A stretch of 64,000 nucleotides of DNA from Gammaproteobacteria bacterium (GTDB lineage Bacteria; Pseudomonadota; Gammaproteobacteria; Enterobacterales; Alteromonadaceae). Of this stretch, positions 44,854 to 55,162 are shown one piece after another. Below the pieces are notes generated by a model. It saw nothing but the letters and a program-made list of their open reading frames with translations, was not told where the DNA came from and made no database searches. Positions within the stretch are counted from its first letter, which is position 1, and each line of letters opens with the position of its first letter. A program made the position numbers and the translations under genes. Where the stretch lies: NCBI GenBank assembly GCA_018826295.1, contig JAHJZX010000040.1, positions 79,688-143,687 on the forward strand, given 5' to 3'.

Positions 44854-45714
44854 ATGATCCACAGCATGACCGCCTTCGCCCGTCACGAAACCAAAGCCAG
44901 CTGGGGCACTGCCCAGTGGGAGATCCGCTCGGTAAACCAACGTTACCTGGAGTCCTACTTTCGCCTGCCCGAGCAGTTTCGCGGTTTAGAAAGCCTGCTG
45001 CGCGACAAACTGCGTAACAACCTGCAGCGCGGCAAAATAGAAGTAAACCTGCGCTACCATGCTAACCAGGCCGCCGGTGAACTAACGTTAAACGAAGTAT
45101 TCGCCGAGCAATTACTCCAAAAAGCCCAGCAGTTACTGCAAAAAGCGCCGCAAGCGCAGTTAAACATTGCCGACATCCTGCGCTGGCCGGGCGTAATGGA
45201 AACACCAACTGAAGATTTAGACGCCCTGCAAGCTGAACTGCTGGCCGGTTTCGATGCCGCCCTGCAAGACTTCCTTGCCGGCCGTGGCCGCGAAGGCGAA
45301 GCCATTGAAGGCATGATCCAACAGCGTTTAACTGCCATCAGCGAACAAGTCGCCTTTGTGCGCAGCCACCTGCCACAAGCCATGCAATGGCAGCGCGACC
45401 GTATTGTTAACCGCTTAAATGAGATTAAAGCCGATTTAGACCAGAGCCGTCTGGAACAAGAAATGGCGTTTTTAGCCTCAAAATCCGACGTCGCCGAAGA
45501 GCTCGACCGCCTCGATGCCCACATTAAAGAAACCCGCCACACGCTGAAAAAAGGCGGCGCCTGCGGCCGACGGCTCGATTTTATGATGCAGGAATTTAAC
45601 CGCGAAGCGAACACCTTGTCTTCCAAAGCCATCAGCACCGAGATCACCAATGCCGCAGTAGAGCTTAAGGTGTTAATCGAACAGATGCGCGAGCAGATCC
45701 AAAACGTGGAATAA
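44854..45714 (+). CDS. yicC: YicC/YloC family endoribonuclease
   Basis: SMTAFAR, EIRSVNQRYL, GRRLDFMMQEFNREANT, EQIQNVE. Confidence 0.97.
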   Translation: MIHSMTAFARHETKASWGTAQWEIRSVNQRYLESYFRLPEQFRGLESLLRDKLRNNLQRGKIEVNLRYHANQAAGELTLNEVFAEQLLQKAQQLLQKAPQAQLNIADILRWPGVMETPTEDLDALQAELLAGFDAALQDFLAGRGREGEAIEGMIQQRLTAISEQVAFVRSHLPQAMQWQRDRIVNRLNEIKADLDQSRLEQEMAFLASKSDVAEELDRLDAHIKETRHTLKKGGACGRRLDFMMQEFNREANTLSSKAISTEITNAAVELKVLIEQMREQIQNVE

Positions 45715-51356: not shown

Positions 51357-52693
51357 TGATGGCGAAAATCGACGCATACCAACTGAAAGTAACTTATGGT
51401 GATGATGTCATCGGCACCTTGGCGTTGGATAACACAACCAATTTATTAAAACTTAGCTATACACCGCAGTGGCAACAACAGGGTTTTGCCATTTCACCAC
51501 ATTTGCCCCTTAACAATCAGCATACATCTGAAGTTGCCTACAACTATCTTGATAACGCCCTACCAGAAGGTGAAGCGCGAAAGCTGCTGGCTGAAAACTT
51601 AGGTGTTTCGGAAAAAAACGTCTATTCGCAAGTGCGTGCTATTGGTAGTGATTTAGCGGGTGCCTTCGTATTTAGGCCCGTTGAAGAGGAGCATGTAGAT
51701 GAGACGCAACCCAGCTTTAGGCTACTTGAAGAAGCTGAGTTAATTGAAAGACTCAACATTAAAGAAGAGTTTGGCTTGCTGACATGGGATGACAAGCCCC
51801 GGCTCAGTGTGGCTGGCGTGCAGGACAAACTAAATGTCTTTATGGATAACGCCGGCAACCTTGGTTTTGGCGACGGCGCACTGTGCTCTACCCATATCCT
51901 GAAATTCGAAAAGAAAAACTGCCCAAACCTGGTACTAAACGAGTTCTTCTGCATGAAACTTTCAACTGCGGTTGGCTTACCCACAGCCGAGGTGGCGTTT
52001 AGGCGGTTCGGTCCTCATCCGGCGCTTATCGTTAAGCGCTTTGATCGCAAATACATGAGGGACAATAACAGAGTATTGAGACGCCACGTAATAGATGGCT
52101 GCCAAGCGCTTAACTTATCGAGAGATCATAAATATGAGCGTAACCTTGGCGATAGCAGAGACGTGAAGCATATCCGTGATGGCGCCAGTTTAGAGAAGCT
52201 ATTTGGGTTTTGTCGGAAGATGTCTTCGCCGGTAGAGAGCATACAATGGCTGATCCACTGGCAGTTGTTCAATTTAATGATCGGCAATTATGACAGTCAC
52301 GGCAAAAACGTGTCGCTGTATTTCGACGACAGCACTGCCCGCTTTACCCCAGCCTATGATTTAGTTAACGTTTCGATGTTCCCACAATTCAGGCATGTGT
52401 TAGCAATGGCGATGGGCGATGAATTTGAACCTGACTCCATACACGCCTATCAGCTGGCAGATTTTGCAGAAGCTTGTAAGATCGACAAAAAGCTATTGTC
52501 GAGACTATTAGTTGGCTTAGCAGATAAAGTGCTAAACCAGCTTTCGGATGAATTACTTATCAAAAAGCTGAAAGATGAGCCCGGCATTACTGCTGACGAC
52601 ATTCAGTATTGTCAGCTATTAGGTGACAACATAGTAGCAAGAACAACCCACTTAAAAGCGCAAGCAGCCGAGATCCCATTTATCCGGTTATAG
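51356..52693 (+). CDS. hipA: HipA-family kinase toxin with N-terminal Couple_hipA domain
   Basis: DNALPEG, SVAGVQDK, NEFFCM, RFDR, GNYDSHGKN, PAYDL. Confidence 0.92.
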   Translation: MMAKIDAYQLKVTYGDDVIGTLALDNTTNLLKLSYTPQWQQQGFAISPHLPLNNQHTSEVAYNYLDNALPEGEARKLLAENLGVSEKNVYSQVRAIGSDLAGAFVFRPVEEEHVDETQPSFRLLEEAELIERLNIKEEFGLLTWDDKPRLSVAGVQDKLNVFMDNAGNLGFGDGALCSTHILKFEKKNCPNLVLNEFFCMKLSTAVGLPTAEVAFRRFGPHPALIVKRFDRKYMRDNNRVLRRHVIDGCQALNLSRDHKYERNLGDSRDVKHIRDGASLEKLFGFCRKMSSPVESIQWLIHWQLFNLMIGNYDSHGKNVSLYFDDSTARFTPAYDLVNVSMFPQFRHVLAMAMGDEFEPDSIHAYQLADFAEACKIDKKLLSRLLVGLADKVLNQLSDELLIKKLKDEPGITADDIQYCQLLGDNIVARTTHLKAQAAEIPFIRL

Positions 52694-52916
52694 CTACATA
52701 CTTTACAGCGGCACTGGCTAAATGCCGGCTGGCAATGGTTTTTTCCGGTGTAACATCCGCCCAACTGCGCGGACCGGCCATTATGCCACTATCGACATGA
52801 GCCAGCTCTTCGGGTATTTCAGCGGTAAACAATTCATCAGACCATTTTTGCGCTCTGGCCAACAGCCAGGCTTCAAATTCTGGTGTGCCGGGTTCTGGTT
52901 TGTTCTCAGTCATCAC
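52680..52916 (-). CDS. Hypothetical 78-aa protein, third gene of the effector operon
   Basis: GTGA overlap with the DUF1240-like gene; no recognised motif. Confidence 0.5.
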   Translation of the reverse strand: MMTENKPEPGTPEFEAWLLARAQKWSDELFTAEIPEELAHVDSGIMAGPRSWADVTPEKTIASRHLASAAVKYVAITG

Positions 52917-53482
52917 TGATACCGCTGCTTGCGTTCTGCAATAAATAACTCAATCTGCGCAGTTACTTCATCGTTAGATGGCATTATGCCGGCGGCTTGC
53001 TGCTCATCAAACCAATCCAGCACTTCAACATTAACCAAATAAGACAATTCATGGCAGTATTGTGGCTGACGCACCCACACTTGTGAGGCAAACGGCGAAG
53101 GGTTCTCAAGCTTGCTGCAATGCGTAAAACCGTGCGCTGCTACATAGCCAGGCAACCAAAACCCCAACACAATGCGCACCGCAAAGGCCACGGCCAATAA
53201 CACCAGCGAAATTTTTACCCACAGCGCAAAATGCTGCTCTGGCAAATTACCGAAGTTTCGACGCAGCATTATATAAATCAACATCAGTAACATTGGCGAA
53301 GTAATTAATAGCGGTAATGCCACTAACGGTAATCTGAAATAAAAAGGTTTTGAGTCAAAATCGACTAGCAATGATAGAAGCTCCACAGCTTTGAACACCG
53401 CAACTGCAATCGCGCCAAGCATTATAAGAGACAAAAATACCGCCAGCCCTTTTTTGCGTTCGAAATGCTCGCCCTGCTGCAT
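52913..53482 (-). CDS. DUF1240-like membrane protein, probable immunity protein
   Basis: Three TMs then G-F-x-H-C...VWV...C; TAATG overlap with the upstream gene. Confidence 0.7.
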   Translation of the reverse strand: MQQGEHFERKKGLAVFLSLIMLGAIAVAVFKAVELLSLLVDFDSKPFYFRLPLVALPLLITSPMLLMLIYIMLRRNFGNLPEQHFALWVKISLVLLAVAFAVRIVLGFWLPGYVAAHGFTHCSKLENPSPFASQVWVRQPQYCHELSYLVNVEVLDWFDEQQAAGIMPSNDEVTAQIELFIAERKQRYQ

Positions 53483-54423
53483 TACTTTAAGCTCCACTTT
53501 GGAATAGCAAACAACTTATGCAGAAAAGCTAACGTGTCCTCACTCCAATGTTTGTTGATCTCACTTGCTTTGTCCTCGATTGCCGACAAGCTATTCTCAA
53601 TTTGCGTTTGTGTTTCAAATAGCATCTTTGCGATTCGCTGACCTAACTGCACGTGGTCATCAAGTAGTAAGAACACTGCACCTAAAACGAAACCTACAGC
53701 AACGACTACTACCAAACTGCCTATTGCCAAAGCAGTTGCTCCACCAATAACAGCAGATACAACAAAAGACGCAATCGCAAATGACGCGCCAGCATAAATC
53801 ACATCTGCCGCTATACCGCCCACAAAGTCATGCCAGGTTTTCTGATCGTTTAGCAGCTGATCAATGGCATGAAAGCCCACTGACAACACTATCGACAATA
53901 CAAAACCACCCTTGATGGCCTTATCAGCGCCCAATTTGCCTATACCCATTGAAATAACTTTAGGATGACTTGCCAGATAACGGCTGCCGGTCAGGTGCCG
54001 CCGCAGTGCCGCATAACCTTTAATCACAATGTACGTACGACCGTGATAATTTTTAATCTGGTATTTCGTCAAGACATTGCCGCCCCGACTCAGATCTCTT
54101 GCCAGCACAGCTAACGCTGCACTATCTAGTAAACTTGGCGCAAATGAAAGTAGACTTTTCAGCCCACCGCCTCTGCGTTGCCAAAGTGCTTTTACGCCAC
54201 TATTCTCTTGGCTAAGCGTTTCAAGCCAAGACAAAATCTGCTGTTCCGTTAGGCCTTGTTGCAGTTTTATATTTACCGCCAACTCAAAAAATTCGGTTTC
54301 ATTCATCACAAACATAGAGTGTGAATTAGCGGCTAATGCCTTGGCCAACGCTTCTCTTTGCTGGTTTTGCTGAGCCTGCTGGCGAATTTGACTGGTACGT
54401 TGAATATCGTAAAGAGTTTTCAT
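53482..54423 (-). CDS. Tme-like membrane-disrupting antibacterial effector
   Basis: YIVIKGYAALRRHLTGSRYLASHPKVISMGIG core followed by Gly/Ala-rich TM helices; upstream of DUF1240-like gene. Confidence 0.65.
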   Translation of the reverse strand: MKTLYDIQRTSQIRQQAQQNQQREALAKALAANSHSMFVMNETEFFELAVNIKLQQGLTEQQILSWLETLSQENSGVKALWQRRGGGLKSLLSFAPSLLDSAALAVLARDLSRGGNVLTKYQIKNYHGRTYIVIKGYAALRRHLTGSRYLASHPKVISMGIGKLGADKAIKGGFVLSIVLSVGFHAIDQLLNDQKTWHDFVGGIAADVIYAGASFAIASFVVSAVIGGATALAIGSLVVVVAVGFVLGAVFLLLDDHVQLGQRIAKMLFETQTQIENSLSAIEDKASEINKHWSEDTLAFLHKLFAIPKWSLK

Positions 54424-54565
54424 TATTCGGCCTCATCCATGAAAAGCAAAAATATAACACATTTTACATTTTAAGAACAATTATCAAGCAGTAATTACTA
54501 ATCTTTTAAATCAGCGGTAACAGCGGTAGTATCAAAGCGTTTATCAGGAGATATCAGCAGGAAAA

Positions 54566-55162
54566 ATGTCATCTGCAACAATAGATTATTACAACCGGCA
54601 TGCAGCGGAATACGTACAATCAACAATTAATGTAGATATGACTGCTCTGTATGCTGAGTTCCTGCCATTGATTGCCACAGGCAGCCATATTCTTGATGCT
54701 GGTTGTGGTAGCGGCCGTGACGCAGCTTATTTTAAACAACTTGGTTTTACAGTAAGCGCCTTTGATGCCAGTGGTGAGCTGGCAAAAATTGCCAGCCAGC
54801 GCCTACAGCAAACTGTCACGGTGCAGCAATTCGAGCAGTTGGACGAGTACGAACAATATGATGGTATCTGGTGCTGTGCCAGCCTGCTGCATGTTGCAAC
54901 TGATAGCTTGCCGTCGGTCTTTTTCCGCTTACAACAAGCATTAAAACCCGGTGGCGTGTTGTATATGTCTTTTAAATACGGCGACGGCGAACACGACATA
55001 AATGGCCGGCGCTTTACTGATATGAACGATGCCGAATTAAAAAAAATTCTAAAAAATGTAGCTACGTTAAGTGTTATTAAAACCTGGCTGACACAAGATC
55101 AGCGGGCCAATCGTAATCATGAAGTCTGGTTTAATGCCTTAGTGACTAAGCCAGCCAGTTAA
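54566..55162 (+). CDS. Class I SAM-dependent methyltransferase
   Basis: ILDAGCGSGRD, YDGIWCCASLLH, LKPGG. Confidence 0.9.
   Translation: MSSATIDYYNRHAAEYVQSTINVDMTALYAEFLPLIATGSHILDAGCGSGRDAAYFKQLGFTVSAFDASGELAKIASQRLQQTVTVQQFEQLDEYEQYDGIWCCASLLHVATDSLPSVFFRLQQALKPGGVLYMSFKYGDGEHDINGRRFTDMNDAELKKILKNVATLSVIKTWLTQDQRANRNHEVWFNALVTKPAS

Follow-up and report, generated by a model that had tools for sequence, protein, structure and literature searches.

What does a compact three-gene operon do at the edge of an island of toxin-antitoxin and defense genes, and at whom is it aimed? The question is raised by a stretch of 64,000 nucleotides, here called the window, from a gammaproteobacterial genome of the family Alteromonadaceae (assembly GCA_018826295.1, contig JAHJZX010000040.1, positions 79,688 to 143,687). 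Three minus-strand open reading frames (ORFs), designated genes A, B, and C, are arranged there head to tail. The original prediction for this DNA described them as an orphan Tme-like effector, a DUF1240 immunity gene, and an unexplained third gene. Our analysis makes it quite probable that genes A and B constitute an orphan type VI secretion system (T6SS) effector-immunity pair of the Tme/Tmi family, while gene C merely shares the transcript.

Gene A (53482..54423, minus strand) encodes 313 amino acids, starts with ATG, and has a GAGG motif 9 nt upstream. Gene B (52913..53482, minus strand; 189 amino acids) overlaps it by 1 nt in a TAATG sequence (CATTA at plus-strand positions 53480-53484), and gene C overlaps gene B in a GTGA sequence at 52916-52913. 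Both overlaps, from which translational coupling had been proposed, were verified in the sequence. The longest ORF of gene B begins with GTG at 53497 and encodes 194 residues; since the TAATG overlap is real, the ATG at 53482, conserved in orthologues, is the likely start. Gene C may alternatively start one codon later, from an ATG at 52913, which gives a TGATG overlap and 77 residues, the ORF ending at 52680. All three are conserved coding genes rather than chance ORFs, since gene A orthologues reach E-values of 1e-180. Kyte-Doolittle hydropathy scanning revealed a hydrophobic block at residues 200-260 of gene A with a peak of 2.95, three transmembrane (TM) segments in gene B, and no TM segment in gene C; gene B contains exactly two cysteines. 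The membrane helices of gene A and the three-TM, Cys-pair nature of gene B were thus correctly recognized at the outset.

A word-based search with gene A found 28 clusters of approximately 313-residue "hypothetical" proteins, mostly from Rheinheimera. The orthologues share 60%–91% identity, a constant length of 313 residues, and 23 invariant positions, and the KGY..LR..LTG.RY..HPKV..MGIG core noted earlier is present and near-invariant across the family. A gene A profile run against 1.84 billion representatives retrieved 857 clusters at E ≤ 0.001. The published Tme member used for comparison, WP_000908051 of Escherichia coli SE11, is listed by Fridman et al. 2020 in their Supplementary Data 5 (PMC7046647), and its gene lies directly behind hcp. 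BLASTP aligned gene A with this protein colinearly (128-308 vs 129-302; E 2e-8), and hhalign gave a probability of 95.6% (E 1.2e-8). Furthermore, a hidden Markov model (HMM) of the gene A family, built from 166 members with the E. coli Tme left out, was searched against 22,621 ORFs of the window's own genome and the E. coli locus. At E ≤ 10 it retrieved the E. coli Tme (9.4e-22) and, besides this, only the two copies of the own genome, which are the window gene and its C52 contig paralogue; there were no false hits. The agreement of these three comparisons bears out the predicted Tme-like effector and supports the classification of gene A as a divergent but clear member of the published family of T6SS membrane-disrupting effectors.

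The protein consists of a family-specific N-terminal region (~1-120) and a Tme domain (~121-290) that includes a hydrophobic hairpin (~203-258). The hallmark of Tme is a DxxK motif followed by a TM helix and a second Asp (PMC7046647). In gene A its place is taken by D207-V-I-Y210, and D255/D256 after the hairpin align with the Asp following the TM helix of E. coli Tme. D207 is invariant in the orthologue alignment, and Asp occupies this site in 162 of 167 wider-family members. The +3 position carries Lys in 120/167 members and Tyr in 19/167, including the window protein; Tyr is common to a whole clade of 19 representatives. TmeAIEC cannot be toxic without the Asp of DxxK, and its K304A mutant is still toxic (preprint 10.64898/2026.10.08.757527). 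Because this Lys-to-Ala mutant retains toxicity, Tyr at +3 is no evidence of inactivity, and the Lys is a hallmark of the family rather than a functional requirement.

Pfam scanning of gene A gave no N-terminal match, and ten longer family members contained no PAAR, MIX, or other delivery domain recognizable by Pfam. All cluster names were "hypothetical." The N-terminal region (115 residues) was found in the genus search only on Tme-like proteins and in no case fused to other toxins. A search of PDB sequences yielded nothing beyond 8bgm_B, labeled "Toxin," which the hydrophobic hairpin matched weakly (E 0.0028).

The adjacent gene B was examined together with 30 related loci from species-representative genomes. 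In every locus with DNA reaching that far (27/30), a gene for a membrane protein of 150-210 residues lies directly 3' of the Tme homologue, and several loci carry two or three such genes in tandem (extra Tmi in L005, L013, L020, and L030). Both cysteines are invariant in an alignment of 32 gene B homologues. When these 32 proteins were scanned singly, 20 matched PF06836 (DUF1240), the best at E 1.5e-4, while any other Pfam family was matched by at most four. The window protein itself had no PF06836 match at E ≤ 1 or ≤ 10 and did not attain the gathering score; a whole-genome search with this family found only a gene on contig C55. A PF06836 label precomputed for the 92%-identical orthologue of a Rheinheimera pleomorphica-type genome (L036) was not reproduced by a fresh scan.

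The link to DUF1240 was recovered by profile methods. Comparison of the gene B family with nine Pfam-grade proteins aligned around the genome's own C55 DUF1240 gene gave 87.6% (hhalign, E 3.5e-6) over a segment of ~42 residues, GY..C...C, which is lower than the >95% reported for Tmi1 and Tmi2 when they were termed "DUF1240-like" by profile comparison (PMC7046647). In the gene B family HMM search of the 22,621 ORFs, the best non-self hits were the C55 DUF1240 protein at rank three (3.5e-5) and, at rank four (4.5e-3), YkfM of E. coli, which is the Tmi encoded next to Tme in that species. YkfM aligns on both cysteines. Consequently, the predicted DUF1240 immunity protein stands at the level of the family and its profile, although not as a PF06836 match of the window protein, and the data support calling gene B "DUF1240-like" in the same sense as Tmi1 and Tmi2. 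Its Cys-pair C-terminal domain is predicted to be periplasmic, and a C-terminal extension of ~45 residues is specific to members of the Rheinheimera/Shewanella/Alkalimonas type.

As one possibility, the original prediction had the effector using a T6SS encoded elsewhere. Genes for TssK, TssM, two TssC-like proteins, TssF, Hcp, VgrG, and PAAR were all found on contig C42 of the same genome, forming a near-complete T6SS cluster. The two adjacent TssC/VipB-like genes (C42:24776-27326; 445 and 375 bits) occur as the same pair across the genus and in most genomes with related loci. In a survey of 50 genomes of the genus, TssC was present in 22 of 26 Tme-like-positive and 7 of 24 Tme-like-negative genomes; Fisher's test of this table (22/4/7/17) gave p 1.3e-4, a value that ignores kinship among relatives that are not independent. 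The 30 related loci are spread over 25 genomes, 19 of which have TssC, a share close to the 77% published for Tme (PMC7046647). Tme-like presence thus tracks T6SS presence across relatives, as expected for a T6SS encoded elsewhere. Homology, gene order, membrane topology features, T6SS presence, and co-occurrence are the observed part of the proposed Tme/Tmi reading.

As the original prediction had stated, no VgrG, PAAR, or Hcp gene lies nearby: neither these nor TssC were found by tblastn in the window. The clade of gene A is consistently "orphan," i.e., unlinked to T6SS genes, since no T6SS structural gene occurs within 10 kb in the 30 loci. Orphan location is known for Tme1 of Vibrio parahaemolyticus, which is encoded away from T6SS genes and secreted via an N-terminal RIX domain (PMC10435454).

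Several observations weigh against assigning genes A and B to a functional T6SS effector-immunity pair. Scans of the three window proteins against Pfam, NCBIfam, PADLOC, and PHROGs gave no direct significant match, and the AlphaFold2 model of gene A is poor, with a predicted local distance difference test score (pLDDT) of 58.4 and a predicted template modeling score (pTM) of 0.35, too low for a fold search. The Lys of the hallmark motif is replaced by Tyr. Hcp, VgrG, PAAR, and TssC are absent within 10 kb of all 30 related loci, so that there is no linkage evidence for the subfamily. Rheinheimera baltica has an intact operon and no detected TssC. Finally, the effector gene is broken in some T6SS-negative (L014 and L015) as well as some T6SS-positive (L012, L021, and L029) genomes. 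The two T6SS-negative cases are Shewanella genomes without TssC, in which a split or N-terminally truncated Tme accompanies an intact Tmi (L014:9974-10887 and L015:10013-10663); with broken copies in T6SS-positive genomes as well, no rule can be drawn.

The frequency of broken effectors in relatives, the missing Lys, and the truncated state of gene C in the window could also mean that the operon is a decaying, non-functional remnant in which the Lys-to-Tyr change and the damaged gene C mark the loss of function. We consider such decay quite improbable: neither gene A nor gene B is shortened, and their starts, Shine-Dalgarno sequence, and translational coupling are preserved; the conservation of gene A described above persists across its orthologues; Tyr is shared by the clade of 19 representatives and is no private lesion; and the Lys is dispensable in TmeAIEC.

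The surroundings of the operon, together with its lack of linkage to T6SS genes in all 30 loci and its presence in R. baltica without TssC, bring up another possibility. The operon lies among AbiE, HipBA, HNH, and HEPN genes, and in R. baltica beside a dnd cluster, as would suit a T6SS-independent, self-acting pair of the addiction or abortive-infection type that stabilizes or arms the island and kills by depolarization upon loss of immunity or phage interference. This explanation is improbable. The best PADLOC hit, LeoB, was confined to the hydrophobic stretch of gene A (E 0.0028, 14.6 bits), and genes B and C had none; the Tme proteins characterized so far exert toxicity from the periplasm only (PMC7046647; preprint 10.64898/2026.10.08.757527), and gene A lacks a signal peptide; Tme-like genes follow T6SS presence; and the second copy in the same genome sits between housekeeping genes. 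Moreover, immunity genes and arrays lacking a toxin make sense against the toxins of neighbors, not for addiction.

Such toxin-less immunity genes were indeed found. The R. pleomorphica-type genome has lost the effector by deletion, and a stub of 28 codons is left directly 5' of a Tmi 92% identical to gene B. A locus type situated beside a rof-like gene contains Tme and several Tmi in one relative and Tmi arrays without Tme in another. Loss of the effector with retention of immunity fits interbacterial competition better than phage defense or addiction. On these grounds, and with no significant PADLOC match, the suggestion that the operon was repurposed as a membrane-killing defense effector gained no support, and an effector-immunity pair of the T6SS is retained as the preferred reading.

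Further loci of this family were noted. In the R. pleomorphica-type locus (L036:4887-6243; G021:C21:73835-74501) the Tmi gene is followed by two copies of gene C. The rof-side relatives are L042 (G028:C10:435500-449800) and L043 (G008:C17:270000-277000), and the rof side looks like a hotspot of orphan immunity genes. In the genome under study, the only Pfam-grade DUF1240 gene (C55:12127-12594) stands alone beside a rof-like gene; it was considered as the partner of an adjacent Tme, which was ruled out by the absence of any Tme next to it. A second, also orphan pair of this genome (C52:81433-82958) encodes a Tme-like protein of 309 residues and a Tmi of 198 residues, which are coupled and lack gene C. 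This pair is located between the gene of a DinG-like helicase and tsaB, and the same housekeeping context is found in Alkalimonas (L006). The Cellvibrionaceae metagenome-assembled genome OZ252214.1 has at least five Tme-like loci (L017, L020, L021, L022, and L027), among which L021 is split, and L020 carries three tandem Tmi paralogues behind one effector.

The third gene belongs to a family of acidic, soluble proteins of ~80 residues, comprising 14 clusters assigned to Rheinheimera wherever a genus was named, and is present in a single copy in its own genome. Its conserved part, codons 1 to ~61 (52731..52916, minus strand), aligns to this family. Compared with five orthologous loci, homology at the DNA level ends at ~52731. 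The foreign tail beyond this point (52680..52730, minus strand; ~16 codons and the stop) does not resemble the family consensus, having 16 unrelated codons in place of its final ~17. Position 52693 is the end of the hipA ORF, and the terminator-like hairpin that follows this ORF, at 52714-52732 (plus strand), coincides with the breakpoint. The tail is therefore read-through into the DNA of the adjoining hipBA module, which has taken the place of the gene's 3' end. No third yicC att repeat is present at the breakpoint; only two copies exist, at 45691 and 48985. Hence, of the original description of a coupled gene of 78 residues, the coupling stands, but the gene is not intact in this strain.

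Gene C is coupled to gene B in the window and in L001, and in L003 and L005, too, it comes immediately after Tmi, while distant paralogues occur 1-5 kb from other Tme/Tmi loci in the genomes G028, G008, and G017. All three genes might therefore act as one unit, with gene C as an adaptor, chaperone, or regulator needed for effector loading or expression. This proposal is very improbable, given the distribution and state of the gene. None of the related loci outside Rheinheimera has it, nor does the second Tme/Tmi pair of the genome. Conversely, L036 keeps two copies of it in the absence of Tme, and in L037, G006, and G035 it persists although Tme and Tmi are both missing. It is truncated or interrupted in the window, L002, and L004, where Tme and Tmi are intact. 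In the sister species Rheinheimera muenzenbergensis an AbiE module cuts it at codon 54, and a stop codon interrupts it in L004. Moreover, its paralogues are found behind unrelated modules too. Co-occurrence, proposed earlier as a check on this gene, was thus seen within Rheinheimera, where it lies beside Tme/Tmi, and proved to be genus-specific and separable. Because it occurs separately and is damaged where Tme and Tmi are intact, gene C appears dispensable for the pair, and genes A and B alone are taken as the functional unit.

The distant gene C-like paralogues (89-101 residues; L044:5996-7420, L043:5095-5927, and L042:2120-2741) are the last genes behind other modules, which comprise a 230-residue protein with a 160-residue membrane protein, a 180-residue protein, and a split Fic gene. 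Pfam identified only the Fic fragment in these modules. Gene C had no match among PDB sequences, and the AlphaFold2 model of its family was of low confidence (pLDDT 62.9, pTM 0.29).

The operon is flanked by stacked islets that were inserted at yicC (Fic, two AbiE pairs, and HipBA) and by a gene for a TehB-like methyltransferase (54566..55162, plus strand), which neighbors gene A and is followed by an HNH nuclease gene. The same methyltransferase neighbor was found in six other Rheinheimera loci (L002-L005, L036, and L037), and the order methyltransferase-Tme-Tmi-gene C recurs in several species of the genus. The sister species shares the flanks and has fewer islets. In R. baltica (L001:3750-9699) the operon is directly beside the dndA-D phosphorothioation cluster; an HNH nuclease gene is near in the window instead. 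Its location, on the inner border of the hotspot for insertion at yicC, agrees in part with the predicted cassette inside an island, but with the methyltransferase neighbor retained in six other loci the operon is better described as an accessory island-edge block than as a demonstrably mobile cassette. The divergent intergenic region of 142 bp between gene A and the methyltransferase gene (54424..54565) is the presumed promoter region of the operon. It contains a sigma-70-like match at 54509-54480 (minus strand), while the number of such matches is no higher than in shuffled sequence.

For the proposed pair, we infer how gene A is secreted and loaded through its N-terminus, how it is toxic, and how gene B confers immunity, as follows. 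Gene A would be made in the cytoplasm without a signal peptide, and its family-specific N-terminal region would load the protein onto the C42-encoded T6SS with its Hcp, VgrG, and PAAR spike complex. The effector would then be injected into the periplasm of a neighboring Gram-negative cell, where the Tme domain may place its hairpin in the inner membrane and make the membrane potential collapse, with Asp207 presumably required. In sister cells, the three-TM inner-membrane protein encoded by gene B, with its predicted periplasmic Cys-pair domain, would neutralize incoming Tme. Gene C would encode a separate genus-specific small cytoplasmic protein on the shared transcript, and its 3' end was probably lost as toxin-antitoxin and defense islets accumulated between yicC and the operon; it is probably impaired in this strain and not needed by the pair. 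A more far-reaching idea is that the ~120-residue N-terminus, common to this unlinked Tme clade, represents a new domain for T6SS loading that would correspond to RIX in Rheinheimera, Alkalimonas, Shewanella, Kangiella, and Cellvibrionaceae, and that gene C-like proteins trailing several toxin-like modules in Rheinheimera islands are a new class of accessories for cargo effectors; we regard this as speculative and rather unlikely.

Among the closest known systems, the published Tme/Tmi family was compared through the pair WP_000908051 and YkfM (WP_001236649) of E. coli SE11. The C-terminal Tme domains are homologous and colinear to the protein end, with an Asp before and an Asp after the TM segment; both proteins are ~300 residues long, and both hosts possess a T6SS. 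YkfM and gene B are likewise encoded directly downstream of the effector and have three TM segments, a predicted in-out-in-out topology, and a Cys-pair motif. On the other hand, the effectors are only 25% identical, Tyr stands for the DxxK Lys in the window, and there is no relation over the N-terminal ~120 residues. In E. coli the gene is directly behind hcp in a T6SS cluster, whereas the window subfamily is never beside a T6SS gene in the 30 loci. Gene B also has the extra C-terminal tail of ~45 residues.

Tme1/Tmi1 of V. parahaemolyticus BB22OP (PMC10435454) resembles the window in being an orphan effector with a C-terminal Tme and a separate N-terminal region. In Tme1, this region (RIX) is needed and suffices for secretion (PMC10435454). 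RIX is arginine-rich, comprises ~55 residues (1-55 in Tme1), and has been reported only in Vibrionaceae and Moritellaceae (PMC10435454). TmeAIEC/TmiAIEC of E. coli LF82 (bioRxiv 10.64898/2026.10.08.757527) shares with the window the combination of a Tme domain and a DUF1240-like immunity protein, and its essential Asp and dispensable Lys fit the D207/Y210 state of gene A. However, TmeAIEC forms a fusion with PAAR, and its gene lies within the T6SS-1 cluster, while gene A has no PAAR and is unlinked to T6SS genes. As to PF06836, its members and gene B have in common three TM helices followed by the GY..C ... C motif, but gene B falls below every Pfam reporting threshold, and only the Cys-pair segment of ~42 residues can be aligned.

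These data do not point to a new mechanism or a new system; rather, two "hypothetical" genes and the second pair on C52 can now be annotated. The yicC defense-island hotspot would accommodate a toxin-immunity operon at its edge, and the relatives provide examples of effector loss with retention of immunity. The clade of gene A is a natural case in which the hallmark Lys is replaced and the essential Asp kept, in agreement with the TmeAIEC mutagenesis. The Tme/Tmi family is thereby extended into Rheinheimera and its neighbors, with 857 clusters, the public records of which, where examined, were named only "hypothetical protein."

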